From the sequence record DRR723986_21710: 20,760 nt of DNA. The stretch is one strand, 5' to 3'. This document shows, piece after piece, positions 4,068 to 20,760 of the stretch (its first letter is position 1; each line of letters starts with the position of its first letter). Made by a program: the position numbers and the translations under genes. The notes beneath the pieces are model-generated. The model made no database searches, was not told the origin of the DNA, and saw only the letters and a program-made list of their open reading frames with translations.

Positions 4068-5699
4068 TTGAAAAAAATTATTTGGGCCTTAGGAATTCTG
4101 ATTTTCTTAGCCATAGTCGCAATTGTTATCTTGGAAAAATGGGTCGTTCAGAAATTACCTGAAATTATTAATGGTAAAGAAGATCGAGCCTATACCATTC
4201 TTTTTGAGGATGTTGATTTTCAGTTGTTTAGAGGTAAAATAGGGCTGCATGGCATTTCGATTTTACCAGTGGAAGAGGAAAAGTCAGTTACTATCACTGG
4301 CACGATGAAATCCCTAAGTCTAGATGGGGTGAATATGTTTGGGTTTATTTTTGGAAAAGTAGCAGAAATAGATGAACTGCGATTTGATTCACCAAATTTC
4401 ATATTTGTCAGGAATGATTCTATTGCGTCAAAACCTGCAGATATGTCTAAAGAATTTCAAGGCCTTTTTGGTGATTTGGTGTCACGAGGTATTATCCACA
4501 ATGTAGTGCTTACAGATGGGTCAGGGGAGTTTTATACCAAGTCTGATTCCGTCAGGAAGTTTGGGAGTTTTGAAGGTTTTGAAATAGCTGCGGTAAATCT
4601 TGAGACAGATTCTGTTCGGGTGAATTATGCCATTCCATTCAAATTGGAAAGTATAAAGACCAGCATGAAAAACCTGCTAGTAAACATCAATCAAGATCAA
4701 ACTTTCACCCTAGGTTCTTTGGCTTATGATTCTAAACAGGAAAAATTTGATTTTTTTGACCTTCAGCTGAAATATAAGGATACCAATATTGAAGTAGCCA
4801 AAAAAGCAAAGGTTCAAAAGGATTTCATTGAAGTAGATGTTAAACACATACGAATTGAACAAATAAATGCACAAAGTAATATCTATGGCAACTGGGCTGT
4901 AGTGGCTGGATTGCTGACAATAGATAGCCTGCATTTGCATGATGTCAGGAATAAAAATAAGCCGCGGCCTTTTGAACCAGAAAAACCTATGTTTGAAGGA
5001 ATGGTGGAGCAAATTCCCTTTCCTTTAGAGATAGATACCATTAAGGTGATGAATTCAAAAATCACCTATTCCCAGATTTCAGAGGGGAAATCTGAACCAG
5101 GGAGCCTAATTTTCGAGCAACTCTCGGCCAAAATATCCCATGCAGTTTCTTTGGATTCTCTACAGTCTGGCGAGCTACTTATTCATGGTGAAGCTGTGTT
5201 GAACGGTTTTGCACCAATGCGCATGGATGTCAAAGTTCCTTATACTAGCGATAGTACCAAAGAGAATTTTCATTTGGAAGCTAGTGTGGATCCTTTTTCA
5301 CTGCCATCACTTAATGGGATTCTAGGCGACTTGGTTTCTGTCAATATTACTTCAGGTAGGATGCAAAAGCTAGAAATCACAATGGATGCGACACGGTTCT
5401 CCTCTTCTAATTTCATGAAGTTCCAGTACGATGATCTCAAACTTGAGCTAAGAGATGACAATGCACAAAAGAAGAAATTGATGTCTATCGTAGCAAATGT
5501 TCTTACCTCAAGCAATAACCTTCCAGAAAATAAGAATTATAAAACAGCGACTTTTCAGACAGAACGAAATGTGTATCGAGGTACTTTCAATCTAATTTGG
5601 GAATCTCTAAGAGAAGGAATGCTGGAAATAGTACCAGGTGACCTGATGCAAATCCTGATGAAGGAACAAGATCCGCCTGATGGTGGGAAAAGGAGATAG
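4068..5699 (+). CDS. Membrane-anchored AsmA/DUF748-like envelope protein (function uncertain)
   Basis: 543-aa ORF with TTG start. A single N-terminal hydrophobic anchor is followed by long amphipathic beta-strand-rich sequence, ending in FNLIWESLREGM. Family assignment is by resemblance only. Confidence 0.55.
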   Translation: MKKIIWALGILIFLAIVAIVILEKWVVQKLPEIINGKEDRAYTILFEDVDFQLFRGKIGLHGISILPVEEEKSVTITGTMKSLSLDGVNMFGFIFGKVAEIDELRFDSPNFIFVRNDSIASKPADMSKEFQGLFGDLVSRGIIHNVVLTDGSGEFYTKSDSVRKFGSFEGFEIAAVNLETDSVRVNYAIPFKLESIKTSMKNLLVNINQDQTFTLGSLAYDSKQEKFDFFDLQLKYKDTNIEVAKKAKVQKDFIEVDVKHIRIEQINAQSNIYGNWAVVAGLLTIDSLHLHDVRNKNKPRPFEPEKPMFEGMVEQIPFPLEIDTIKVMNSKITYSQISEGKSEPGSLIFEQLSAKISHAVSLDSLQSGELLIHGEAVLNGFAPMRMDVKVPYTSDSTKENFHLEASVDPFSLPSLNGILGDLVSVNITSGRMQKLEITMDATRFSSSNFMKFQYDDLKLELRDDNAQKKKLMSIVANVLTSSNNLPENKNYKTATFQTERNVYRGTFNLIWESLREGMLEIVPGDLMQILMKEQDPPDGGKRR

Positions 5700-5875: not shown

Positions 5876-6250
5876 CTATTCAATTAACGCTCTTCTTCTG
5901 TCAAAACCATAATATGTATGAACGTCGTTGATGAATTGATGCTGCGGACCTATAGGCCAGTCGTCTTTGTCAAAACCTGGAGCATTCTCAAGCTTTTCTT
6001 TGTTGATCTTTACCAGAATGACACCACGTTGGTGACTGTGAAAATCAAATGCCCCCCAAGGAAGAGCTAAGAGTTTGTTGCCAAGATTTAGAAATCCGGT
6101 ATCTACCGCAAGGACTACATAAGCGATTTCACCAGTTTCGGTGTCCAGCATGATGTCCTTGATACTTCCTACTACTTCATCGCTAATTGTTTTGACGGTA
6201 CAGTTTGCTGCTGTTGAACTACTAATTGGGAAATGATATTGGGTATTCAT
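5876..6250 (-). CDS. PRC-barrel domain protein
   Basis: EVVGSIKDIMLDTETGEIAYVVL..GFLNLGNKLLALPWGAF..KEKLENAPGFDKDDWP is the typical PRC-barrel pattern. Confidence 0.9.
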   Translation of the reverse strand: MNTQYHFPISSSTAANCTVKTISDEVVGSIKDIMLDTETGEIAYVVLAVDTGFLNLGNKLLALPWGAFDFHSHQRGVILVKINKEKLENAPGFDKDDWPIGPQHQFINDVHTYYGFDRRRALIE

Positions 6251-6616: not shown

Positions 6617-8875
6617 ATGGGAAATCAAAGTACTGACAAACTTGAGCTGGCTGCGAAATTTGTCAACAATACCGGAGCACCGATTTTTTTGACTGGGAAG
6701 GCAGGAACGGGGAAGACGACCTTTCTGAAAAACCTAGCTTTACAAACACATAAAAACCATGTAATCGTAGCTCCTACAGGAATTGCAGCACTAAATGCAG
6801 GCGGAGTTACCATCCATTCGCAATTCCTTTTTCCACTTGGTTTTTTTCTCCCGGTGAATGAGCCCGAGGGCAATTTTTCTGATCAGTATGGGTGTTTTAC
6901 TCAACATACCCTGGTTCGAAAACATCCGCTAAATGCGCTACGGAAAAATGTGCTAAAATCTATTGAGCTATTGGTCATTGATGAGGTGAGTATGTTGCGG
7001 GCAGATGTGCTGGACGCTATAGATTATAGACTTCGGAGTGTCAAAAGGAATTTTAATACACCTTTTGGAGGTGTTCAGCTATTGATGATTGGGGATCTAT
7101 TTCAGTTGCCGCCGATAGTTAGAGATAATGAATGGCAAGTGCTCAGTAAGTTTTACCCAAGTATGCATTTCTTCGAAGCTAGGGTTTTGCAAGACTCAGG
7201 TTTGGTCTATTTAGAGTTGGATAAAATTTTCCGACAGCAAGACGAGGACTTTATTCAAGTTTTGAATCACCTCAGGGAGAATATGGTGACTTCTGAAGAT
7301 ATAGCACTTCTGAACAAGCACTATAAGACGCAGGAAGAAATCGCCGAAGTAAAGGACTGCATTACAATTACAACACACAATTATAAAGCTGACCAGATTA
7401 ATCGGGATCGGTTGATGGCGATGAAAGGTGAGTCAAAGTTCTATGAAGCAGAAATTGAAAATGATTTTCCTGAAAATATCTATCCACTTCCCAAATCCCT
7501 GGAACTACGGGTAGGAGCCCAGGTGATGTTTATCAAAAATGATTCATCTGGAAATCAGGATTACTTCAATGGAAAGCTTGCAACTGTGGAGGAATTGGAA
7601 GAGGATTCCATCAAAGTGATGCTGGAAGGAAAACGCATTTTGTACCAATTGCGGAAGGAAATCTGGGAAAATAAGAAATACGTAATCAATCCAGATACTA
7701 AAGAATTGGAGGAGGAAGTGATTGGCACATTTAGTCAATATCCAATTAAAACTGCTTGGGCTGTGACAGTTCATAAAAGCCAAGGGTTGACCTTTGATCA
7801 GGCGATTATTGATGTTGGTAATGCCTTTGCACCTGGACAAGTGTACGTCGCTCTTAGTAGACTGAGAAGTTTGGAAGGATTAATCTTGCGAACAAGAATC
7901 CAAAATAATGCCTTACAGTCAGACTCTCAGGTACAGTCGTTTGTGGAGACTGCCAAAAAGAACGCGAAACTGGATGAACTTTTGGGAGCATATCAGCAGC
8001 GATACCTTTCGTTATTGTCTGGAGAAACCTTTGATTTGGCTGGTTTGCTTCAAGAAATAAACAGCTTCCAGCGAAAGAATGATAGCTCATTGGAGTTTGA
8101 AGATCCTGAGATGCAAAAAGCTGTGGGAGAAATCGCCACATTGATTCGAAATGAAGTGGCGACGGCTGGAAAATTCAGCAATCAATTACGTTTTCTCTTG
8201 CAGCAGAATGACAAAGAGAAATTAATGGAGAGATTGGACAAGGGAGCTTCCTATTTCAAGGGGTTTTTGAAAACTGCACTTGAGAAAATACTTATTCATC
8301 GAGCTGAAGTGGAGCGATTTTCCAGAACAAAGACCTATGCCAATTCCTTGGAAGAATTGGAAGTTAGCTTGTTGAGAAAGTACGGTGAGATCAGCAAGGT
8401 GAGTCGTTTGATCTCCTCAATCATGGATGGTGGTATTCCCGACAAAATGAGTGATTTGGAGCAAGATAAAATCAATCTCCGACTTCGATTGGCTGAAGCA
8501 GCGAAGCAAGCAGCTGCGGATAATCCAAAATTTGCCAGTAATAAAACAGGTAGGAAAAAGGCCGGCAAGAAAAATCTGAAGCGGAAAGTGGGAGAGACTT
8601 ACGAGATAACTTTTGCGATGATCAATGAAGGTAAGAGCATTGGAGATATCGTGGTGGCTCGAGGATTAGCGGAATCGACCATCAAGGGGCATTTGGCAAA
8701 AGGAATTCAAGAAGGAAGAGTGGAATTGGAAGACTGTTTACCGATGGAGGTGATCTCCGAGATCAGTTCGCAAATCGAGAATATCAAAAATCTACAAGCT
8801 CTAAGAATTCATTTTGAAGGAAAATACGATTACAATACTATAAAAATGGTAGTGGCAGGAGTAGAGAACACGTAA
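6617..8875 (+). CDS. PIF1/RecD-like SF1B DNA helicase with C-terminal helix-turn-helix domain
   Basis: Walker A GKAGTGKT, APTGIAA, Walker B VIDEVSM, FGGVQLLMIGDLFQLPP, AWAVTVHKSQGLTFD and GQVYVALSR. C-terminal EGKSIGDIVVARGLAESTIKGHL is HTH-like. Confidence 0.9.
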   Translation: MGNQSTDKLELAAKFVNNTGAPIFLTGKAGTGKTTFLKNLALQTHKNHVIVAPTGIAALNAGGVTIHSQFLFPLGFFLPVNEPEGNFSDQYGCFTQHTLVRKHPLNALRKNVLKSIELLVIDEVSMLRADVLDAIDYRLRSVKRNFNTPFGGVQLLMIGDLFQLPPIVRDNEWQVLSKFYPSMHFFEARVLQDSGLVYLELDKIFRQQDEDFIQVLNHLRENMVTSEDIALLNKHYKTQEEIAEVKDCITITTHNYKADQINRDRLMAMKGESKFYEAEIENDFPENIYPLPKSLELRVGAQVMFIKNDSSGNQDYFNGKLATVEELEEDSIKVMLEGKRILYQLRKEIWENKKYVINPDTKELEEEVIGTFSQYPIKTAWAVTVHKSQGLTFDQAIIDVGNAFAPGQVYVALSRLRSLEGLILRTRIQNNALQSDSQVQSFVETAKKNAKLDELLGAYQQRYLSLLSGETFDLAGLLQEINSFQRKNDSSLEFEDPEMQKAVGEIATLIRNEVATAGKFSNQLRFLLQQNDKEKLMERLDKGASYFKGFLKTALEKILIHRAEVERFSRTKTYANSLEELEVSLLRKYGEISKVSRLISSIMDGGIPDKMSDLEQDKINLRLRLAEAAKQAAADNPKFASNKTGRKKAGKKNLKRKVGETYEITFAMINEGKSIGDIVVARGLAESTIKGHLAKGIQEGRVELEDCLPMEVISEISSQIENIKNLQALRIHFEGKYDYNTIKMVVAGVENT

Positions 8876-10390: not shown

Positions 10391-10957
10391 TTAGCCGATC
10401 TTAATCCCATACCTTCCAAGCAAACCAGGTAAACCATCCAAATCAAATCGTGCTCCTTTGATTCTGTTTATTTCCGGATCAATAGAATAGTGGATTGCAT
10501 TCCTGAAATCAACTTTTTGAACTGTCGTTTGGTCAAAGGTAGCGCCACTAAGGTCCGAGCCTTGAAAGTCAGAGGCAGTCAAATCAGCTTGAGTAAAATC
10601 AACTTCCGTAAGTCTGCAATTGATGAACTTAGACTTTTTTATTTTAAGGTTATAAAAGCTGCTGTAATCCAATTGACATCCTTGAAAGGAAAATTCCAGT
10701 AGAAAAGGATTACTGGAGTGGAAGTGTATTCCCAGCATTTTACAATTTTCGAAAGTTACTTGTTGAAAAGATACATCTCTCACTTTTATATTGCTCAGAT
10801 CACAATTTTTGAAGGTGCAGTTTTCGAAACTTGCTCCTTGAATGTTCAAATTAGAGAGTTTACATTGTTCAAATAGACAGTTTTCATATTCAGTTATTTT
10901 AAAATTCTCTTGAGTAAAATAAATAGTATTGTAATCTTGATCTGCTTGGTGAGTCAT
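10391..10957 (-). CDS. Pentapeptide-repeat protein
   Basis: Continuous 5-residue periodicity (YENCL FEQCK LSNLN IQGAS FENCT FKNCD LSNIK.. FTQAD LTASD FQGSD LSGAT FDQTT). Confidence 0.92.
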   Translation of the reverse strand: MTHQADQDYNTIYFTQENFKITEYENCLFEQCKLSNLNIQGASFENCTFKNCDLSNIKVRDVSFQQVTFENCKMLGIHFHSSNPFLLEFSFQGCQLDYSSFYNLKIKKSKFINCRLTEVDFTQADLTASDFQGSDLSGATFDQTTVQKVDFRNAIHYSIDPEINRIKGARFDLDGLPGLLGRYGIKIG

Positions 10958-11161: not shown

Positions 11162-12073
11162 ATGCGAACAGTAATTTTTACGCAAAGTATATGGAGCCTT
11201 TCTTCCATTCAAAATTTATCCCAAAAGAATCAGCTTGCAGGTGTAGTAATCCCAAATAAAGAAGTTCCAGATCGAAAAATGCTTTTAGACATCTCTAATA
11301 ATTTAAATCTTCCAGTTTATAGTTGGGATGGTAAAGAGTTAGATGAAATTAGAAAGTGGTTCTTTGATGTGAAAGCCGATAGAGGATTAAGTTTTGGTTT
11401 TTCATATAAGATTCCCAAAGCAATTATTGAAAGTTTTCAGTTTGGAATATTAAATGTCCACTATGGAAAGCTTCCGACATACGCGGGGGCTGCTCCTCTT
11501 TTTTGGACTTTGAAAAATAGGGAGAAGAATGTCACAATTTCCTTCCATCAAATAAACGAAAACTGGGATTCTGGTAGAATGGTTAAAGAGGTACTAGTCC
11601 CAATTTTTCCAGGGGAGCCAATTGGTCTACTTTCTTCTCGTCTATCTATAGTAGCCGCCAATGATATATCAGAAGCAATGGAAAAACTGGAGTTGAATGT
11701 TGGTGAATTAATACCTTCAATTCCACAGATACTTCAAAGACCAACAGAACAGGACCTATATGTAGATTGGAAGAACCAAACAGCAGATGAAGTGGAATCT
11801 TTGGTTAATGCCGCCAATCCTCATTATGGAGGAGCAATTTCAAATTTTAGAGAGAATCAGATTCGGATTTTGGAAGTTAGTCCAGCAGAAGTAAATGTAA
11901 CCGGAATTTTCTCTCCTGGCTCTATTGTTTATGCAGACACCACATATGGAGTGTTTGTATTATGTTCTGATTTCAAATACTTGAGAATAAATATTTTTCA
12001 AATAGAAGGAACAATAATTACTGGGACAAAATTGGCGGCTTTAGGAATTAAACCCTTTGAAAAGCTTATATGA
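11162..12073 (+). CDS. Formyltransferase family protein (Fmt-like fold, probably not the housekeeping Met-tRNA formyltransferase)
   Basis: GILNVHYGKLPTYAGAAP corresponds to the NxHxSLLPxxRGxxP motif, and HQINENWDSG carries the catalytic Asp. An Fmt C-terminal-like domain is present (VDWKNQTADEVESLVNAANP). The N-terminal GTPxFA of true Fmt is missing. Confidence 0.8.
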   Translation: MRTVIFTQSIWSLSSIQNLSQKNQLAGVVIPNKEVPDRKMLLDISNNLNLPVYSWDGKELDEIRKWFFDVKADRGLSFGFSYKIPKAIIESFQFGILNVHYGKLPTYAGAAPLFWTLKNREKNVTISFHQINENWDSGRMVKEVLVPIFPGEPIGLLSSRLSIVAANDISEAMEKLELNVGELIPSIPQILQRPTEQDLYVDWKNQTADEVESLVNAANPHYGGAISNFRENQIRILEVSPAEVNVTGIFSPGSIVYADTTYGVFVLCSDFKYLRINIFQIEGTIITGTKLAALGIKPFEKLI

Positions 12074-12196
12074 GCATTCTTTGACATTTTTGTTTAAATA
12101 GTTAAAAAAATAAGGAAATAGTACTTGCATTATATATTGAAATTTGAATTAATAAAGTGTATTTTTCCTATATGACTTTTCAACTAATTTTTAATT

Positions 12197-12988
12197 ATGA
12201 ATTTTGATAGGAGAGAATTTTTAATAAAAATGTCGGTTTCAGCAGGAATGTTATCACTTCCAGGTATTGGGTTTTCTGATGTTTTATCTGAAACCATCGG
12301 GTTTAATAATCATATTTTACATTTAGGTTCCGTATATGGTTTGGATTCTAATTTCCCGAATTCTGTAAGTAAGCTTACAGCGGGAAAAAGTTTGATTTTT
12401 TCAACAGCCGCTCCAGGAAAAACCTTTCAAAGAAATTTATCTAGTATTGCGCCACATGGAATTCATGCGGTTTTATTTGGAGGGGATTGGTGGGGTCAAA
12501 TAGGATTACCTGAAGTTGATAAAGCTATAAATGAAAATCTTCCTTTTATCAATTCTAATTTTACCTTTTCATCATTTGAGAAACCTGTTTCAGTATCCAA
12601 ACATTTAATTATTAATGATGGAAAAAGTAAGATTGGTGTGATGGGAATTGGGTTCGGTGAGAGTGGGCAGAAAATTAAAGATACAATTGAAAAAATGAAT
12701 CAGGTTTCTTCATTTTTGAAGAATGAATTAGTGTGTGATAAAGTCTATTGCTTAGTAGATGATCCTAAGCCATATTTTCCATTATTTTCATTGAGAGATT
12801 TAGCATCTTCAAGCATTAATGTTAATCAGTTTTTTGGCCGTGATACTTTGAGTAAAGTTAATCAATTGCATGTTTTAAGAAATATAAACAAGGATCAAGT
12901 TTTAGTTAGTGCAAGTAGTGAAATAGATAAAATGCAAGAATTAATTTCTTTTCAAAAAGGCAGATTTTCAGACTATAAATTTATCTAA
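12197..12988 (+). CDS. Tat-exported protein resembling a degenerate 5'-nucleotidase/metallophosphoesterase N-terminal domain
   Basis: MNFDRREFLIK twin-arginine signal. Scaffold segments LPFINSNF, KHLIINDGKSKIGVMGIG and FLKNELVCDKVYCL resemble Bacteroidota UshA-type N-domains, but the metal-binding motifs are not recognisable. Confidence 0.55.
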   Translation: MNFDRREFLIKMSVSAGMLSLPGIGFSDVLSETIGFNNHILHLGSVYGLDSNFPNSVSKLTAGKSLIFSTAAPGKTFQRNLSSIAPHGIHAVLFGGDWWGQIGLPEVDKAINENLPFINSNFTFSSFEKPVSVSKHLIINDGKSKIGVMGIGFGESGQKIKDTIEKMNQVSSFLKNELVCDKVYCLVDDPKPYFPLFSLRDLASSSINVNQFFGRDTLSKVNQLHVLRNINKDQVLVSASSEIDKMQELISFQKGRFSDYKFI

Positions 12989-13172
12989 TTATTAGATTAG
13001 TTTTGCTTATTGTATGGGATACCTCTAATAATTAATTAACGCAGTCTATTTTATACAAATATTTTTGCAGATTAAATTCTGTATTAAGAATTTGTAATTA
13101 TTTGTAAAAAAAAAATATCTGATTTTCTTACAAAAAAACATGTATTAATTATATATTGAAGTTTAATAATTT

Positions 13173-13197
13173 TTGATATATCAAGCTTTTAAAGCTT
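13173..13197. promoter_or_regulatory. Two overlapping palindromes, candidate operator upstream of the tail-collar genes
   Basis: TTGATATATCAA (13173-13184) is a perfect 12-bp palindrome. AAGCTTT-t-AAAGCTT occupies 13183-13197. Confidence 0.35.
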
Positions 13198-13248
13198 TAT
13201 AAATACACTACTTTATTAATTTATTTTTCACTTAAACCTTTAATTATT

Positions 13249-13794
13249 ATGGAACCCTTTTTAGGACAAATTATGATGGTGGGATTTAATTTCGCACCGA
13301 GAGGCTGGGCATTTTGCGATGGTAGATTATTACCCATTTCTTCCTACTCTGCGTTATTCTCTCTCCTTGGAACAATGTATGGAGGAGATGGAAGAACGAC
13401 TTTTGCATTGCCGGATTTGAGAGGTCGTGTTGCGATCGGAATGGGACATGGGCCTGGACTAACCGATAGAAGACAAGGTCAATATGTAGGAAAGGAAACA
13501 CATACATTGACTGTCCCAGAAATTCCATCTCATAATCATTACTTAAATGCTAGTAATACTGATGGAACAACAAATGATCCAACAGGTAATGTCATTGCAA
13601 AAAATTCAGTTATAGTAGAAAGAGGAGGAGCTGCAATACCGGCCAATGGATTTGTATCAGGTACACCAAATACCCAAATGAATATTAGTAGTATCGAATA
13701 TGTAGGTGGAAGTCAATCGCATAATAACATGCAGCCTTTAGTAGTCATGAATTATGTAATTGCTTTAAATGGCATTTTTCCTTCAAGAAGCTAA
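13249..13794 (+). CDS. Phage tail-collar domain protein (microcystin-dependent protein MrpB/RhiB-like mini-fibre), copy 1
   Basis: PFLGQIMMVGFNFAPRGWAFCDGRLLPI..ALFSLLGTMYGGDGRTTFALPDLRGR collar domain, HNH motif, and C-terminal HNNMQP..NYVIALNGIFPSR. No signal peptide. Confidence 0.92.
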   Translation: MEPFLGQIMMVGFNFAPRGWAFCDGRLLPISSYSALFSLLGTMYGGDGRTTFALPDLRGRVAIGMGHGPGLTDRRQGQYVGKETHTLTVPEIPSHNHYLNASNTDGTTNDPTGNVIAKNSVIVERGGAAIPANGFVSGTPNTQMNISSIEYVGGSQSHNNMQPLVVMNYVIALNGIFPSRS

Positions 13795-13820
13795 GTTATT
13801 GCAAATAAACGATATTAATC

Positions 13821-14369
13821 ATGGTTACTCCTTTTATAGGTCAAATAGAACTGTTTGGATTTAACTTTGCCCCAAGAGGTTGGGCATTTTGTGCTGGCCA
13901 ACTATTGCAGATTTCTCAAAATGAAGCTTTATTTTCTTTATTAGGAACAATATATGGCGGTGATGGTAGGAATACCTTTGGCCTACCAGATTTAAGAGGT
14001 TGTGCAGCAATAAGCTATGGAACAGGTTCTGGATTGACTCCAAGGGTCATTGGTCAAAGAGTTGGTGTGGAAAATGTGACACTAACTACAGCTCAAATAC
14101 CTAACCATAATCATCCTTTGTATGGGAATAATTCCAATGGAACTACAAATGATCCATCAGGAAATGTCATAGCGAAAAATTCTGTCATTGTTGAAAGAGG
14201 AGGGTCAGCCATTCCAGTCAATGGATATGTATCTGGAACTGCAAATGTCGGAACGAATGCCAACAGTGTGGGCAATGAAGGTGGAAATCAATCACATATT
14301 AATATGCAGCCTTCAATAGTGTTGAATTATTGCATTGCGCTGGTTGGGATTTATCCTTCCAGAGATTAA
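13821..14369 (+). CDS. Phage tail-collar domain protein (MrpB/RhiB-like mini-fibre), copy 2
   Basis: Same architecture as copy 1: FGFNFAPRGWAFCAGQLL..LPDLRG, HNH, HINMQP..NYCIALVGIYPSR. Starts 26 nt after copy 1. Confidence 0.92.
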   Translation: MVTPFIGQIELFGFNFAPRGWAFCAGQLLQISQNEALFSLLGTIYGGDGRNTFGLPDLRGCAAISYGTGSGLTPRVIGQRVGVENVTLTTAQIPNHNHPLYGNNSNGTTNDPSGNVIAKNSVIVERGGSAIPVNGYVSGTANVGTNANSVGNEGGNQSHINMQPSIVLNYCIALVGIYPSRD

Positions 14370-14381
14370 ATTTTCTTATGA

Positions 14382-14410
14382 ACCGATCCCTTTATGGGGT
14401 CGGTATTTTT
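14382..14410 (+). terminator. Terminator-like hairpin between the collar genes and the adhesin
   Basis: ACCGATCCC-tttat-GGGGTCGGT (9-bp stem with one G-U) followed by ATTTTTATTT. Confidence 0.6.
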
Positions 14411-14428
14411 ATTTAAATATAAACCCTT

Positions 14429-17400
14429 ATGATGCCTAACGTCTTCAAACCCATTTTTTTTATACTACTATTTGTATTTAGCACTGTTTTTTCGTTTGCT
14501 CAGACTACTGTTAATTTCAATAGTTACACGGAGAACCAAGGGTTATCAAACCCACACACTGAAGGTGAATTGAAATTTGAAGTAATAAAAAACACCAGTG
14601 CATGTACTGTATGTATTGGAATTGATTTTAACGAGGGCAAAGATGGGACTCCTGGTTTGGATGATGATAATTTTCAAATCAATGGGATAGTAGCTTGGAA
14701 AATTTCCAAAGCAGATAATTCTTCGTTTCAATTTTTAAGTATTTGGCTTCAACATAGAGGAGCTGGGACTTCTACCTCAGGTACTATTAAAGCATATAAA
14801 GGAGGGGTCCAAATTGGAAGTACTGTAAATATTAATTTTGATAGTAGTACGGCAGGTCTAAAATCCCTTTCTTCTAATCCTGATTTTTATGATGTGGATT
14901 CTGTATTGATTGAGGGAGCAGATCTTTTTATAATACTTGACGAAATCACCTATAATGTTCCATTTGTTGTAGGTGATGCGGATCCGGCTGAAGTGACAGC
15001 TATCAATTTGATAGGATCTCCATTGAGTACTGCTACCTCTGTACAATACCAAGTAGATTTTTCTAAAATAGCCAAAAACGTTAGTGCTGATGATTTTACC
15101 CTGACGACAACCGGTACTGCAACCGGCACGATAGGGACAGTTACGGGAAGTGACGCTACTTATACTATTCCAATTTCTGGGATTTCTGGGGAGGGAACAA
15201 TCCGACTGGATCTTCAAGCTGGAACAAACATCGCCAATGAAAATAATGTCACAGGTACAGCGGCCTTTACATCAGGCCAGGTGCATAATGTTAGCCCATG
15301 TCTAGTCGAAGACTTTGAAGATGAAACAGTTGGAGCTAAGGTGTTTAGCTATGGAGGGTTTAATTTTACAATTACCGGAAACCTCGAAGTTTATACAGAA
15401 ACACCTTCTATAGGAATCAATGGCTCCAAAAATGTATTGAAAAATACCGGAACTGGAACGTATACGATTCGTCCCAATTCAGGTGAAATCAATTTTAGAA
15501 AAATCGCATTATTTCTTTCTTCAATTCCTACTGGTGATAGCCCTACTAATGATGGTAATATCACTGTTGTGGGTAAAAATGGAGGGGCAACTGTTTATAC
15601 TATTTCCAAAGCATCTGGATTCCCAACAGATTTCAGTGCTAATAGTGGCTATTATATTTTTGATTTACAGACAGAAGGTGGAGTTGATAATTCGGATATT
15701 TCTGTTGATGCAATTGAAATCACAATAGGAGGTGCTTTCCAATACATGAACATCGATAACTTCGAATTCTGTGCCGACGATGTGGCACCATCAGGTTATT
15801 CAGTAACCATTGACCAAGATCCAATTACCCCAGATAATGACGATGCAGTGAGCTTTACTTTTAGTGGAGCAGAAGTAGGAACGACCTACGAATATACATT
15901 TACAAGCTCAGGAGGTGGTACTCCAGTAACTAATACAGGAACAATTATAACGGCTACAGATCAGATTACTGGTATTGATTTAGGTGGTTTGGGATTGGGA
16001 ACAATCACCTTATCAGTTAACCTAACTGATGCTTCAAATAATGAAGGTCTTCCTGCACAGGATCAAGTACAAAAAAGAGTTGTCACTGTCCCAGTAGCAA
16101 CTCCTCCTTCAGCCCCAGCGGTAACAGAAGACGATGTAAATGTTGCTCTTGCAGATGATATTCAAGTGGCTGATGCTGATGGAGATGATCAAACACTTAC
16201 GTTTACTATTACTGGAGGGACAGTAACTCTTGGTACAGCAGGGATTACATTTGGAGGATCAGCAAATGGCTCAGCAAGTTTTACGGCTTCAGGAACTTTA
16301 GCAGCTCTTAATACGGCTTTGGATGCAGCTACTTTTACGCCAACTCCTGATTTATTTGGTACCGGAGTAGCGACTATTGAGTTTGTTTCCAATGACGGGA
16401 CGGCTGATTCAGACCCAGCTTCAGTCACTTTTGATATTGCTGGGGTAAATGATGCCCCTGTTGTTGACCTAAACGGTGTATTAGGGCCTGATTGGACTGA
16501 AGGAGCTAGCCCTTATGTGATCAATCCGGCAATTTTGGTGAGTGATCCAGAGGATGATAATATTGTCGCAGCTACTATAAGTATTGTTGATTTTGTCGAC
16601 GGAGATGTATTAGGAATTACCGCTCCATCTCCTTATACAGCAAGTTATAATTCCAACACGGGAGTCCTTTTATTATCTGGAACTGGAACGGCTGCTCAAA
16701 TGCAATCTGCTTTGCGAACAGTTGTATTTAGTAATTCAACAGATGATCCTGGCCAAGGTAATACTGATAATACTCGTGCAGTAAGCTTTTTTGTGACGGA
16801 TGCTAACGCTGCTACTTCAAGTACAATTGGAAATATGGTATTGACCATTATCTCTGTCAATGATGATCCTATCATGTCGGACCTACCATCGGACATTAGT
16901 GTAGTAGAAAATACAGCTAGCAACATTGATCTTTCAGGTGCAACCTTTGGAGATGTAGACTCCGGTTCAGGTAATGTCCGATTATCCTTCTTGGCTTCCG
17001 GAGGAACATTAACAGCTACAGGTACAGCAGACGTTACTGTGAGCAGTCTAACTCCTGGTACATTAAATTTAGAAGGTACAGCTGCTGCGATCGAAAGGTT
17101 CTTAAATGATCCTTCCAGCATTCAATACACCAATGCTTCAGGAGTTACTGGTGATAATGCTGCAACACTAAGTGTTTCGGCTACTGATAACGGAAATACA
17201 GGAGATGGTGGTGGCACAACTGTTAATCTAGGTGTGATAAACATTGATGTGGAAAGCTTTATATCGTTTTCTATCAATGATCCAGCTGTGACTGAAGGTG
17301 ATGCTGGTACTACAAGTCTACAATTTACTGTTTCACTAAGCGCTCCTGCACCTGCTGGAGGCGCAACTGTGGATATTGCTAGTTCGGATGGCACTGCTAC

Positions 17401-20400
17401 TGCAGGGTCAGATTATACTGGAATCAGTACGACTACCCTATCATTCCTAGCTGGAGAAAGCAGTAAAACGGTGAATGTAACTGTGGTTGGCGACCAATTA
17501 GTAGAGATGGACGAGACATTAACTTTAACCTTATCAAATCCTACGGGTACCAACGTCATTATCGCGGATGCCACGGGAACCGGAACAATCACTAATGATG
17601 ATCAAGCTGCTGTTACGATAGCTGATGTGAGTGGAAATGAGGATGAAGGATCAATTACAGTGACGGTGACTCTAGATAATGCTGTGGACGGAGGTTTTAG
17701 TGTAGACGTAAGTACAGCAGATGGCACCGCTACAACGGCTAATAGTGACTACACAGCTGTTACTTCCCAAACCTTAATTTTTACTGGAACGGCAGGAGAA
17801 ACCCAGACCTTTACAGTTACACCAACTGCTGATACTAAGTTAGAAGCAGACGAGACGGTCTCTGTAAGTATGAGTAACTTAGCTGGGACGACATTGCCAG
17901 TTACAATTACCGATGGTGCTACCGTGTCTATTTTGAATGATGATCCCTTTCCAAACCTCAACATTGACAATATCAGTGTGAACGAAAATGAGGGTAGCGC
18001 CACCTTCACTGTTACGTTATCAGCCGTGTCTGATCTAGCAGTTAGTGTCAACTATGTGAGTAGCGACGGTACTGCCATCGCAGGTAGCGACTTCACTGCT
18101 GTCTTGGGAACTCTCAACTTCGCAGCGGGCGACCTGACTAAAACCATAGTAGTACCTATTATCAATGATGGTATTTTTGAGGATTCTGAAAACTTCAGTA
18201 TCAATTTGAGCAATCCGACCAATGCTATTTTAGAAACAATAGCTGGTATAGGTACAATTCTTAATGATGATCCTGAGCCAAAAATTATTTCTATAGGTGT
18301 GCAACATGCTACTGAAGGCTTAGACTTAATTGGCACTGTAACTTTAGATCAAGCTTCAGGTACTCCTTTAACCATGAGCTATAGTATTGGTGGTGGTACT
18401 GCTTCATCATCTGATTATGGAACCCCAGTTTTTAGTGATGGAGTTGCCGTAGTGGGAACAAATTTGTTGATACCAGCTGGTATTTCAAGCTTTAGAGTCG
18501 TTGTACCAACTGTAGACGATCTATTTAATGAGGCTACTGAAACAGTGCCTTTTACATTTAATGGACTGAGTGTTTTAGGTAATATCTATGATAATGATGT
18601 TCAACCAGGCCTCTTTATTAACTCTATCTCGTTTAACGAGACCTCAGGCACAGTAGTCTTCACAGTTAGCTTGTCCGGGGCTTCGGGCAAGCTGGTCAGT
18701 GTCAATTACTCTAGTGCTGACGGAACAGCTACTGCGGGCAGTGACTATACTGCAGTTAGCGGCACCCTCAATTTTGCTGCGGGCGAACTGACCCAAACCA
18801 TCTCGGTGCCGATTATTGATGATAGCGATTTTGAAGTTCAGGAAAACTTTACCATTACCTTAAGCGGAGCTACTAATGCCAGCATTATAAATGCGACTGG
18901 CACAGGTACCATTATTGATAATGATAGTGCCCCAATAGTAAGTAGCATCAGCAGTCCTGAGGTAATTGAAGGTGAGGACTTGATATATAATGTAACACTC
19001 AGCAATGCCTCCTCTACCAATACAAGCTTCAGTTTCGCCTTGGGTGGTGGCTCTGCGTCGAATAGTGATTACGGTACTCCATCTTTCAGTAATGGGGTGA
19101 GCTTTGTGGCTGGTACCCTGATTGTGCCTGCATTCGTGACCAGCTTCAGTGTAACCTTGCCTACAGCCGATGATGATCTCTTTGAGCCATCCGAAACAGT
19201 ACCACTAAATATCGGGGGCTTAATCAGCATAGGTACTATCTTAAATAATGATCCAGCTATTCTTACTATCACCGCAAATGAGAATCAATCTAAGGTCTTG
19301 GGAGCTACAGACCCAGTTCTCACTTTCACAGCCTCAGGATTTGAAGGGACAGATGATGCGACAATTCTAACGGGTGCACTTTCTCGAGATCCAGGAGAAA
19401 CAGTAGGTACCTATGCAATTAATCAAGGAGACTTGAGTGCAGGACCTAACTATACCATCATTTTTGTTCCTGCCGATTTTGAGATCAAAAAAGGTACTGT
19501 TCAAATAACAGATTCGTTTGATGCAGCTGATAAAGTATATGACGCCACAAAGTCAGCCACTCTTTCGGTGAATAACCTTAGCCTAAGTGGAATAGATGCC
19601 AATTCGCCAGATGTATCAATTGGTACTGTGACCACTGAGTTTGTTGATAAAAATGTTGGGGTAGGTAAAGAAGTAAGAATCACATCAATCACTTTAACCG
19701 GTGCTGATGCAGGTTCTTATGATATTGATTATACTGGAGCACCAACTTCTACAGCTACTATTTCTGCTGCACCGCTTTCAGTAGTTGGTTTTAGTTCAAA
19801 CAATAAGGTCTATGACGGAACGACATTAGCTTCACTATCTGGAACTCCGTCAATTACCGGAATTGGTGCAGATGATGTATCTGTTTCAGGAACGCCTATT
19901 GCTAATTTCTTGCAGTCTGATGTTGGAGTCGCTATCCCTATAACCGTTACTGGGCTTACCTTGGATGGGGTGGATAAGGATAATTATGAGATTATTCCAC
20001 CTGCAGGATTGGAAGCGAACATTACAGAAGCGCAACTATTGATCAGCGCCAATCCAAATCAAAGTAAAGAGTTTGGATCAGCCGACCCAATATTCACTTA
20101 TTCATCCTCAGGATTTGTTGGAGGAGAAACCGACGCTATCCTGACAGGAGCATTAAGTAGGACTACAGGGGAGGATAAGGGGACTTATCCAATTAATCTT
20201 GGGACACTAGATGCAGGGTCGAATTATACAATCAACTTTACCGGAGCTAACTTTACCATTGCTGCGAAAGTATTGAACATCACAGCAGATGCCGGACAAA
20301 TGAAAGTCTATGGTGAAGCCGATCCTATCTTAACTTATGTAGCTACAGGATTTGAAGCTGGAGATGATGAAACGATTCTTACAGGAGCCTTATCAAGAGC

Positions 20401-20760
20401 AGCTGGAGAAAATGTTGGTAATTATGCGATCAACCTAGGAACACTTTCAGCTGGCGACAATTATACGATCAACTTCACTTCGGCTGACTTTGAGATCACT
20501 AAAGCTACGTTGAACATTACCGCTAATGCAGGTCAGACGAAGGTTTATGGCAATGCTGATCCAGTATATACATACTTGGCGAATGGATTTAAAAATGGCG
20601 ATACCAATGCAATCCTTACCGGGTCACTGATCAGAATAGCTGGAGAAGATGTAGGCATGTACGCCATCCAGCCAGGAACGATCAATGCGGGTGGTAACTA
20701 TACAATTAACTTTACTTCGGCTGATTTTGAGATCACGAAGGCTACGTTGAACATTACCGC
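14429..20760 (+). CDS. Giant multi-domain surface adhesin (partial, more than 2110 aa): signal peptide, two N-terminal globular modules, Ig/cadherin-like repeats, 6 Calx-beta, 2 YDG and at least 4 MBG repeats
   Basis: Translated by hand: one open frame from ATG 14429 (MMPNVFKPIFFILLFVFSTVFSFA|QTTVNF..) to the window end with no stop. Contains VNDAP/VNDDP cadherin-like junctions, DGTATAGSDY..TITNDD Calx-beta units, KVYDA/KVYDG units and KVYGxADP..LTGALSR..GE.VG.Y.I MBG units. Missing from the ORF track. Confidence 0.93.
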   Translation, partial: MMPNVFKPIFFILLFVFSTVFSFAQTTVNFNSYTENQGLSNPHTEGELKFEVIKNTSACTVCIGIDFNEGKDGTPGLDDDNFQINGIVAWKISKADNSSFQFLSIWLQHRGAGTSTSGTIKAYKGGVQIGSTVNINFDSSTAGLKSLSSNPDFYDVDSVLIEGADLFIILDEITYNVPFVVGDADPAEVTAINLIGSPLSTATSVQYQVDFSKIAKNVSADDFTLTTTGTATGTIGTVTGSDATYTIPISGISGEGTIRLDLQAGTNIANENNVTGTAAFTSGQVHNVSPCLVEDFEDETVGAKVFSYGGFNFTITGNLEVYTETPSIGINGSKNVLKNTGTGTYTIRPNSGEINFRKIALFLSSIPTGDSPTNDGNITVVGKNGGATVYTISKASGFPTDFSANSGYYIFDLQTEGGVDNSDISVDAIEITIGGAFQYMNIDNFEFCADDVAPSGYSVTIDQDPITPDNDDAVSFTFSGAEVGTTYEYTFTSSGGGTPVTNTGTIITATDQITGIDLGGLGLGTITLSVNLTDASNNEGLPAQDQVQKRVVTVPVATPPSAPAVTEDDVNVALADDIQVADADGDDQTLTFTITGGTVTLGTAGITFGGSANGSASFTASGTLAALNTALDAATFTPTPDLFGTGVATIEFVSNDGTADSDPASVTFDIAGVNDAPVVDLNGVLGPDWTEGASPYVINPAILVSDPEDDNIVAATISIVDFVDGDVLGITAPSPYTASYNSNTGVLLLSGTGTAAQMQSALRTVVFSNSTDDPGQGNTDNTRAVSFFVTDANAATSSTIGNMVLTIISVNDDPIMSDLPSDISVVENTASNIDLSGATFGDVDSGSGNVRLSFLASGGTLTATGTADVTVSSLTPGTLNLEGTAAAIERFLNDPSSIQYTNASGVTGDNAATLSVSATDNGNTGDGGGTTVNLGVINIDVESFISFSINDPAVTEGDAGTTSLQFTVSLSAPAPAGGATVDIASSDGTATAGSDYTGISTTTLSFLAGESSKTVNVTVVGDQLVEMDETLTLTLSNPTGTNVIIADATGTGTITNDDQAAVTIADVSGNEDEGSITVTVTLDNAVDGGFSVDVSTADGTATTANSDYTAVTSQTLIFTGTAGETQTFTVTPTADTKLEADETVSVSMSNLAGTTLPVTITDGATVSILNDDPFPNLNIDNISVNENEGSATFTVTLSAVSDLAVSVNYVSSDGTAIAGSDFTAVLGTLNFAAGDLTKTIVVPIINDGIFEDSENFSINLSNPTNAILETIAGIGTILNDDPEPKIISIGVQHATEGLDLIGTVTLDQASGTPLTMSYSIGGGTASSSDYGTPVFSDGVAVVGTNLLIPAGISSFRVVVPTVDDLFNEATETVPFTFNGLSVLGNIYDNDVQPGLFINSISFNETSGTVVFTVSLSGASGKLVSVNYSSADGTATAGSDYTAVSGTLNFAAGELTQTISVPIIDDSDFEVQENFTITLSGATNASIINATGTGTIIDNDSAPIVSSISSPEVIEGEDLIYNVTLSNASSTNTSFSFALGGGSASNSDYGTPSFSNGVSFVAGTLIVPAFVTSFSVTLPTADDDLFEPSETVPLNIGGLISIGTILNNDPAILTITANENQSKVLGATDPVLTFTASGFEGTDDATILTGALSRDPGETVGTYAINQGDLSAGPNYTIIFVPADFEIKKGTVQITDSFDAADKVYDATKSATLSVNNLSLSGIDANSPDVSIGTVTTEFVDKNVGVGKEVRITSITLTGADAGSYDIDYTGAPTSTATISAAPLSVVGFSSNNKVYDGTTLASLSGTPSITGIGADDVSVSGTPIANFLQSDVGVAIPITVTGLTLDGVDKDNYEIIPPAGLEANITEAQLLISANPNQSKEFGSADPIFTYSSSGFVGGETDAILTGALSRTTGEDKGTYPINLGTLDAGSNYTINFTGANFTIAAKVLNITADAGQMKVYGEADPILTYVATGFEAGDDETILTGALSRAAGENVGNYAINLGTLSAGDNYTINFTSADFEITKATLNITANAGQTKVYGNADPVYTYLANGFKNGDTNAILTGSLIRIAGEDVGMYAIQPGTINAGGNYTINFTSADFEITKATLNIT
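17258..19252 (+). repeat. Six tandem Calx-beta-like domains within the adhesin
   Basis: Units end in NDD/DND/NND at 17602, 17944, 18271, 18598, 18925 and 19252. The last four are each exactly 327 bp. Confidence 0.85.
19490..20026 (+). repeat. Two YDG-like domains within the adhesin
   Basis: DKVYDATKSATL..DKNVGVGKEV..LTGADAGSY and NKVYDGTTLASL..DVGVAIPITVTGLTLDGVDKDNY. Confidence 0.75.
20027..20760 (+). repeat. Tandem 237-bp (79-aa) MBG-like domain array, continuing beyond the window
   Basis: Units at 20027-20263, 20264-20500 and 20501-20737, with a fourth starting at 20738. An isolated copy of the same length lies at 19253-19489. Confidence 0.85.

Follow-up and report, generated by a model that had tools for sequence, protein, structure and literature searches.

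How could small proteins that carry no signal peptide come to work beside a giant surface adhesin? The question is raised by a gene set at positions 11162-20758 of a 20,760-nucleotide stretch of DNA from sequence record DRR723986_21710 (the whole stretch is hereafter the window). All on the plus strand, it comprises a formyltransferase-like (Fmt-like) gene, a gene for a protein with a putative twin-arginine translocation (Tat) signal, two tail-collar genes and the greater part of a giant surface protein gene, separated in this order by gaps of 123, 260, 26 and 59 bp. The nearest relative of the first collar protein is from Algoriphagus aestuarii (94% identity), and the window therefore stems from an Algoriphagus-like member of the Bacteroidota. 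A preliminary description of the window had listed these five same-strand genes, which our open reading frame (ORF) listing and Pfam and NCBIfam scans recovered at the same positions, and had read them as a domesticated phage-fibre module in which short fibres decorate or act with the adhesin. The genes, their linkage and the synteny of the Fmt-like and Tat genes hold in our analysis, whereas the label of mini-fibres does not; the surface display of collars without a signal peptide needs an export route, which had been left unaddressed, and the Tat protein appears to be more than an accessory. We are confident that a module of collars with recurrent partners exists, that the window holds its Algoriphagus version, and that it is both widespread and uncharacterised. 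The sequences point to an envelope module built around stand-alone knob proteins, each predicted to consist of a gp12-like collar and a head domain with an invariant HxH site.

The two collar proteins (collar 1, 181 aa, 13249-13794; collar 2, 182 aa, 13821-14369) are paralogues with 66% identity, and both match the Pfam family Collar (PF07484) far above its gathering cut-off of 24 (1e-29 and 102.7 bits for collar 1, 3.6e-27 and 94.5 bits for collar 2). They belong to the stand-alone MdpB or "microcystin-dependent protein" family, with matches that cover 100% of the sequence, lengths of 169-188 aa and an occurrence in tandem copies. Residues 5-74 of collar 1 align with T4 gp12 (PDB 1ocy, E 2e-5), the match being confined to the collar segment, and the HxH motif (H95, H97), shared with gp12, is present in both window collars and invariant in all 131 collars of the window and the related loci described below. 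T4 gp12 reportedly binds zinc through this motif in its trimer. In contrast to gp12, the window collars are short and shaftless, are not part of a phage, and lie beside cellular, secretion-linked genes. Along their full length they align to the tip and collar portions of phage tail-fibre families of 300-1000 aa (PHROGs), which are internal or C-terminal parts of those proteins, and they have neither the N-terminal shaft nor the surrounding tail or baseplate genes of a virion fibre; they correspond to the knob of a fibre only, and not to the "mini-fibres" first proposed.

At least 8000 homologues of collar 1 were found, the nearest being the 94% identical A. aestuarii protein (locus L001), where the orthologue of collar 2 is 90% identical. 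Cellular relatives across phyla are about 49-94% identical, compared with 497 phage records that hold collar relatives, all below 60% identity and the best at approximately 38-39%. The module can be called domesticated in a distant sense, but the collars as such belong to a cellular family. A prophage or tailocin remnant that has decayed and serves no function in the cell would account for the presence of a phage tail domain. However, the ORFs are intact, the cellular relatives are much closer than those in phages, the non-phage neighbours of the collars are kept, and Pfam and PHROGs searches found no phage structural or integrase gene in the window, in agreement with the preliminary description; we rejected this explanation as hardly credible. 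The same searches gave no match to capsid, sheath, tube, baseplate or integrase families in the eight genes upstream of the set. In a tree of 21 collars (15 Bacteroidota loci), most of the branching was unresolved, and the paralogues in first and second position did not form separate groups.

We found no signal peptide on either window collar, and the conserved core begins as early as residue 3-5. Other members of the family do carry export features. Sec signals are present in the relatives P0080 and P0103, and among the compared loci three hold collars with a Sec signal (L047, L074, L077) and three hold collars with a Tat signal of their own (L019, L035, L050). In P0025, P0061 and P0068, two collar units are fused and followed by a PEP-CTERM-like end (Pro-x-Pro, a hydrophobic stretch and a run of Arg), which suggests exosortase-type surface sorting of collars in some lineages. 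Taken together, the Sec signals, Tat signals and PEP-CTERM-like anchors of these relatives indicate that the family acts outside the cytoplasm.

The literature gives little guidance on what collars do there. RhiB of the Rhizobium rhiABC operon is reported to carry a collar domain, and the function of RhiB and of MrpB from the Microcystis mrpAB operon is described as unsettled (PMC13133039, PMC3328848); mrpB is cotranscribed with mrpA (PMC3328848). By their naming, these proteins belong to the same stand-alone family as the window collars, but the rhi and mrp operons differ by description, not being described with a Tat partner, an acyltransferase or a giant adhesin. Also on record are a signal of positive selection in collar paralogues of Solibacter (PMC3174227) and a fusion of PilV with a collar (PMC9881135). 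A lead to Microcystis MrpC was dropped, MrpC being a tubular pilin whose described gene cluster lists no collar (PMC12397347). Our literature searches found no paper that ties cellular collars to giant adhesins, Tat partners or acyltransferases.

To the window we added 79 related loci from many phyla, giving 80 loci, the best 80 of at least 578 confirmed relatives in one collection; their ORFs are our own crude calls, which are worst in G+C-rich DNA, and a collar was missed in 2 loci. Collars occur singly in 41 loci and in runs of two in 22, three in 14 and four in one. Directly downstream of the collars, a same-strand gene of at least 700 aa is found in 27 of the 75 loci that have a downstream gene, compared with 71 of 859 other genes (8.3%; Fisher p 4e-10), and five more loci have such a large gene after one intervening small gene. 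We scanned 28 of these 32 large genes, and 24 encode adhesin-type repeats or an S-layer homology (SLH) domain: 14 of them also end in a C-terminal domain of the type IX secretion system (T9SS), including the 2958-aa A. aestuarii orthologue of the window giant (CHU_C), and the other 10 carry cadherin-like, HYR, Calx-beta or Ig-like repeats, or SLH domains. Two of the remaining genes have no Pfam match and two encode unrelated enzymes (L054, L057).

GNAT acetyltransferases are encoded in 18 loci, 16 of the 80 having one within two genes of the collars, and an Fmt-like gene lies within the same distance in five (the window, L001, L021, L031, L051); the two enzymes never occur in one locus. The pattern that the preliminary description had put forward, of tandem collars beside a very large secreted protein and a GNAT, is recovered in this sample, with the run lengths and the frequencies of large genes and GNATs just given. 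Its proposal that the Fmt-like and Tat genes belong with the collars is also borne out, the former being next to collars in other genera and the latter in four other Algoriphagus loci. Profile comparisons of the recurrent neighbour families with the collar profile (hhalign) showed them to be unrelated to it, with probabilities of at most 1.7%.

The giant protein (14429-20758, more than 2110 aa, with the 3' end beyond the window) begins with a Sec-like signal (residues 1-24) followed by Q25 and a head at residues 25-448 (14501-15772), and downstream of the head carries four Calx-beta, four MBG_2 and two YDG repeats (Pfam). The head is common to the giants that follow collars in Algoriphagus, Salegentibacter and Echinicola (41-84% identity); its model (pLDDT 83) has three beta-sandwich domains with weak fold matches to discoidin or carbohydrate-binding module (CBM)-like domains. 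The CHU_C T9SS signal at the end of the A. aestuarii orthologue is followed by a PorP/SprF gene, so the orthologous giant is, on sequence features, a T9SS protein; in L024 a PorV gene comes after the giant. SprB-type T9SS adhesins of Flavobacterium johnsoniae likewise come with a cognate PorP/SprF gene, their C-terminal domain being of type B, and the Fmt-linked giant of L051 consists of SprB repeats; the window giant differs from SprB in its head and in its repeats, its own C-terminus lying beyond the window. If the giant is anchored by a C-terminal T9SS domain, its head would be the distal end. A segment of 125 aa (residues 553-677, 16085-16459) recurs with 68-70% identity within giants linked to collars in two Aquimarina loci (L020, L021) and in a contig that bears the label Limnohabitans (L012); its presence in otherwise unrelated giants suggests domain shuffling between adhesins.

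A terminator-like hairpin with a T-run (14382-14414; hairpin 14382-14404, 9 pairs of which 6 are G-C; minimum free energy -16.7, z -3.5) lies between collar 2 and the giant gene. Of the 21 loci examined, 10 have a clear G+C-rich hairpin and U-run in the corresponding place after the last collar, their sequences being unrelated, and between the window and L001 a change from G-U to A-U in the stem keeps the pair. The collars probably make up a separate unit with stronger expression, whether or not transcription reads through into the giant.

The gene at 11162-12073 encodes a 303-aa protein with matches to Formyl_trans_N (2.4e-12) and Formyl_trans_C (3.3e-10). It is a paralogue rather than the housekeeping Fmt, as its score against TIGR00460 (fmt) is 98.2 bits, far below the cut-off of 201.5, although it retains both Fmt domains and its best PDB match is Fmt (2e-14). 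The NVH and DSG motifs line up with their Fmt counterparts, and all 21 subfamily members compared share N98, H100 and D136, so that the Asn-His-Asp triad is intact and the protein is predicted to be an active enzyme. The subfamily comprises 73 clusters, all named sources of which are Bacteroidota, and its gene lies directly upstream of collars in A. aestuarii, Echinicola, Aquimarina and Flaviaesturariibacter, with 31-36% identity outside Algoriphagus. It seems reasonable, as had been suggested, that it fills the slot of a modifying enzyme, being syntenic with the collars and never found alongside a GNAT. The GNATs of the other loci best match RimI, a protein N-terminal acetyltransferase, again far below the family cut-off (30-42 bits compared with 86.4).

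The N-termini of the collars differ with the enzyme that accompanies them. Collars in GNAT loci start with M-S-E-P-F, and 31 of the 34 have a small second residue; those in Fmt loci start with M-E/D-P-F, with an acidic second residue in seven of eight; loci with neither enzyme have 28 collars with a small and 48 with another second residue. Counted per locus, a small residue follows Met in 16 of 17 GNAT loci, none of five Fmt loci and 13 of 49 loci with neither (p 1e-6). Methionine aminopeptidase removes Met before a small second residue and leaves it before Glu or Asp; removal of Met from the M-S collars would therefore expose Ser, a substrate of the RimI type. N-terminal Gln is cyclised in Bacteroidota, and flavobacterial collars of the Sec type probably mature to an N-terminal Gln. 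We tentatively propose that the Fmt-like enzymes and GNATs cap the N-terminus of the collars, a suggestion whose chances we judge to be modest.

The enzymes' target for N-acylation may instead belong to a surface glycan, be it an amino sugar or another small molecule, and the collars or the head of the giant would bind this glycan. Similarity of the Fmt-like protein to the formyltransferase domain of ArnA (3e-10) and to sugar formyltransferases is nearly as high as its similarity to Fmt, the GNATs weakly match WecD-type sugar acyltransferases, and the giant head resembles carbohydrate-binding modules. We nevertheless consider this explanation very unlikely, since neither the window nor the recurrent neighbours include an aminotransferase, dehydratase or glycosyltransferase, and RimI remains the best match of the GNATs.

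Between the Fmt-like gene and the collars lies the gene (12197-12988) for a 263-aa protein with no Pfam or NCBIfam match. Its N-terminus (MNFDRREFLIK) carries the sequence DRREFLIK followed by the uncharged stretch MSVSAGMLSLPGIGF; R5, R6 and F8 of the RR-x-F-L motif are invariant in nine homologues, and the signal would span approximately residues 1-29 (12197-12283). The protein is a putative Tat substrate, an assignment based on the motif, as no Tat-signal model matched; the tat genes themselves lie beyond the window. An AlphaFold model (pLDDT 69, predicted template-modelling score 0.75; the first ~36 residues and two loops are poor) has fold matches in the PDB (Foldseek) that are confined to the N-domains of 5'-nucleotidases such as UshA, NadN and CD73 (E 2e-9, TMq ~0.6), and the 5_nucleotid_C domain is absent from the protein in the Pfam scan. 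A profile search of 1.8 billion proteins returned 276 relatives, the distant ones being Tat-signal metallophosphatases of ~310 aa and full 5'-nucleotidases (Metallophos/5_nucleotid_C). The columns of the metal-binding motifs DxH, GD, GNH(E/D), H and GH are kept in the active-looking relatives P0163, P0188, P0205 and P0255 and replaced in the window protein. A metallophosphatase fold with its Asp, His and Asn metal ligands replaced, together with the RR motif, indicates a Tat-signal pseudo-enzyme, and the earlier designation as a Tat pseudo-nucleotidase is apt. Such pseudo-metallophosphatases immediately precede the collars in five loci, all Algoriphagus (the window, L001, L004, L005 and L010).

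Twin-arginine motifs turned out to be a recurrent feature next to collars. We scanned the genes around the collars in the 80 loci for RR-x-hydrophobic followed by an uncharged stretch, and found the motif in 15 of 76 genes directly upstream and six of 75 directly downstream, in three of 73 and three of 59 genes two positions away, in three of 131 collars themselves, and in 11 of 608 of all other genes (Fisher p 4e-9 for enrichment next to collars). Curation added L015, L024, L036 and L078, where the RR is visible by eye, and L018 and L026, where the wrong frame had been called and tblastn gives 93-95% to the L025 protein, so that 26 of the 80 loci (the window and 25 others) have an adjacent Tat-signal protein. 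These neighbours fall into five families: the pseudo-metallophosphatases (five loci); a 180-aa beta-sandwich protein that weakly resembles intradiol dioxygenases, starts with SRRLF(L/M)RN and lies upstream of the collars in seven Flavobacteriaceae loci; long forms of DUF6916 (seven loci, one on the opposite strand); a family of 110-130 aa (four loci); and a 250-aa protein of the Phycisphaerales (three loci). They align with one another nowhere outside the signal peptide (hhalign probability at most 9%). That collars adjoin Tat-signal proteins of five unrelated families, as judged by these comparisons, is new here, and the window's Tat protein, previously taken for a periplasmic accessory, looks like one case of this wider arrangement.

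Two of these families deserve a further remark. DUF6916 neighbours occur in 14 loci (L007, L008, L015, L023, L030, L036, L041, L050, L064, L066, L070, L071, L075, L078), in two versions, a long one that has a Tat signal and a short one (96-118 aa) that lacks it, the latter often on the opposite strand after a GNAT; a literature search on DUF6916 found no paper. The Phycisphaerales loci (L018, L025, L026) show a different accessory set around the same collar core, in the order of the 250-aa Tat-signal protein, a collar, a 223-aa GC-type dockerin protein and, on the opposite strand, a CAAX-protease-like membrane protein.

The family appears to be extracytoplasmic, and the Tat system exports folded proteins together with signal-less partners; the simplest reading is that the collars ride on their Tat neighbour. 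Such hitch-hiking of signal-less subunits is established (PMC4273604, PMC10924467), and its gene layout, as in E. coli PaoABC and other heterodimeric substrates described there, places the signal-bearing protein beside its signal-less partners, as in the window and the 25 other loci. The known cases differ from ours, being cofactor-containing redox enzymes with a working carrier, whereas here the putative carrier is a dead enzyme or a small unrelated protein and the cargo a phage-like knob. The six loci whose collars have their own Tat or Sec signal have neither a Tat neighbour nor an acyltransferase, a small number of loci that is suggestive only. When collar 1, in three copies, was modelled together with the Tat protein freed of its signal (residues 30-263), the predicted complex scored 0.10 against a mark of 0.34, which is evidence neither way. 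Passage of the signal-less collars across the inner membrane by Tat hitch-hiking is thus a serious candidate, to which we give about the same or slightly better prospects than to N-terminal capping, while still holding it to be the less probable outcome.

Two other readings of the same neighbourhoods have to be weighed against Tat carriage. The collars could be domesticated pieces of phage fibre that decorate the giant, with the Tat protein only a periplasmic helper and the formyltransferase acting on something else. The linkage of collars to giants and acyltransferases and their homology to phage fibre tips are in keeping with this, but it offers no export route for signal-less collars and explains neither the recurrent, unrelated Tat neighbours nor their absence beside collars with a signal of their own, and the collars have no shaft; we regard it as unlikely. 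Alternatively, the collars may be cytoplasmic and tied to the giant in another role, such as that of a chaperone, a regulator or a sensor, with the Tat and Fmt-like neighbours present through shared regulation or chance. The missing signal peptide, the 48 of 80 loci that have neither a Tat neighbour nor a collar signal, the fast divergence of the Tat gene and the unsettled function of RhiB and MrpB (PMC13133039, PMC3328848) would all be compatible with a cytoplasmic role. Against it stand the Sec, Tat and PEP-CTERM-like relatives that are placed outside the cytoplasm, an enrichment of five Tat families that is hard to obtain by chance, and a linkage to Fmt-like genes that persists at 31-36% identity across three orders, and we give this reading a similarly low probability.

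Under the full proposal that we favour, signal-less collars would fold, and probably trimerise and bind metal, in the cytoplasm, where the Fmt-like enzyme would cap their N-terminal amino group, as a RimI-like GNAT would in other phyla. The folded collars would then cross the inner membrane through the Tat system, piggy-backing on the neighbouring pseudo-nucleotidase, which, its catalysis lost, would serve as a carrier. The giant adhesin itself would take the Sec route and then the T9SS, and in the envelope the collars would work with it, most likely through its lectin-like N-terminal head; the terminator hairpin after collar 2 would cause collars to be made in excess over the giant. As a whole, this combination of capping, Tat carriage and joint action with the adhesin has, in our estimate, somewhat less than an even chance of being right. 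That the collars are physically mounted on the giant is doubtful. A bolder form of the proposal, which we hold to be improbable, makes the signal-less knobs a new class of bacterial envelope component, capped, carried by Tat and mounted at the distal tip of giant adhesins, of T9SS or other type, where they would serve as exchangeable binding heads. The caps, made by a dedicated acyltransferase, would then be formyl-Met here, acetyl-Ser in other phyla and possibly pyroglutamate where a Sec signal is present, and the carriers, here a dead nucleotidase, would have no other job.

It should be noted that a number of observations weigh against the full proposal. Only 26 of the 80 loci have an adjacent Tat-signal gene, and 48 show neither a Tat neighbour nor a collar signal; a Tat neighbour is absent from the Fmt loci outside Algoriphagus (L021, L031, L051) and from the Algoriphagus loci L002, L003 and L006. 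The window's Tat gene ends 260 bp before collar 1, and its protein is only 29% identical to that of A. aestuarii, with no similarity at the DNA level while the flanking genes are 72-94% identical, which is odd for a conserved interface. The existence of collars with Sec signals means that folding before export is not obligatory, and the hairpin may put the collars and the giant in separate transcription units. For capping, the GNAT loci are mostly outside the core Bacteroidota and shared lineage may account for the association of N-terminus with acyltransferase; a test on independent pairs, setting GNAT presence against a small second residue, had only four supported pairs and no power, and 36 collars starting with M-E-P-F lie in loci without an Fmt-like gene. 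To these points are added the restriction of the sample to the best relatives and the crude ORF calls.

Comparison of the window with its closest relative indicates that the gene set is a mobile, mosaic unit. Of the 80 loci, the window and A. aestuarii alone combine a Tat protein, an acyltransferase and a giant, and between these two a single block of DNA with 83% identity covers both collars and the first ~675 residues of the giant, beyond which repeats alone align; this shared block speaks for a link of the collars to the giant. The Fmt-like gene is 72% identical at the DNA level, and the Tat gene with its flanks (12064-13197) has no similarity; this divergence of the Tat gene alone looks like an allele replacement or very fast evolution. 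The upstream surroundings of the set differ between the two genomes, and in A. halophytocola the genes upstream of the window's set are present, yet only one collar and a different giant are found there. In a separate case, a contig labelled as a Hyphomicrobiales metagenome-assembled genome (L040, 11200-17481) holds three collar genes and the gene for a protein of 2093 aa that carries the T9SS domain Por_Secre_tail; as a T9SS domain is unexpected in the Alphaproteobacteria, this contig may be mis-binned.

The 260-bp spacer 5' of collar 1 (12989-13248, plus strand) is AT-rich and a weak candidate for a promoter region, with TAnnTTTG at 12998 and 13060; this Bacteroidota -7 promoter motif occurs 21 times in the window compared with 23 expected, and neither it nor a sigma-70 promoter scan rose above chance. 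An Rfam scan of the window returned no family, and PADLOC gave no defence-family match for the four small genes of the set. The eight upstream genes encode sugar-active enzymes, a DUF748-like protein (4068-5699, plus strand), a PRC-barrel protein (5876-6250, minus strand), a Pif1-like helicase with a C-terminal HTH_40 domain (6617-8875, plus strand) and a pentapeptide-repeat protein. The helicase matches the candidate defence-helicase models PDC-M16A (1e-17) and PDC-S68 (3e-16) and also a Dda-like phage helicase family (PHROGs); together with its PRC-barrel and DUF748-like neighbours it is kept in A. halophytocola. The pentapeptide-repeat protein (188 aa, 10391-10957, minus strand) has a match of the Qnr/MfpA type that is far below threshold (66 compared with 240 bits), and its gene forms the border between the conserved flank and the collar module.

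The cellular tail-collar family counts at least 8000 members in many phyla, and no function has been settled since RhiB and MrpB were named. The recurrent set of collars, Tat partner, N-acyltransferase and giant turns this open question into one that can be tested on export, capping and binding. If the carrier idea is true, it would extend Tat hitch-hiking beyond redox enzymes and make pseudo-enzymes export carriers. If the collars sit on adhesins, bacteria would be reusing receptor-binding parts of phages to diversify their adhesion targets, which bears on biofilm formation, gliding and the colonisation of hosts or particles in marine Bacteroidota; and mounting at the tip, if true, would be a bacterial counterpart of the phage tail-fibre tip. 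The gene set may be an undescribed way of building cell-surface adhesins.

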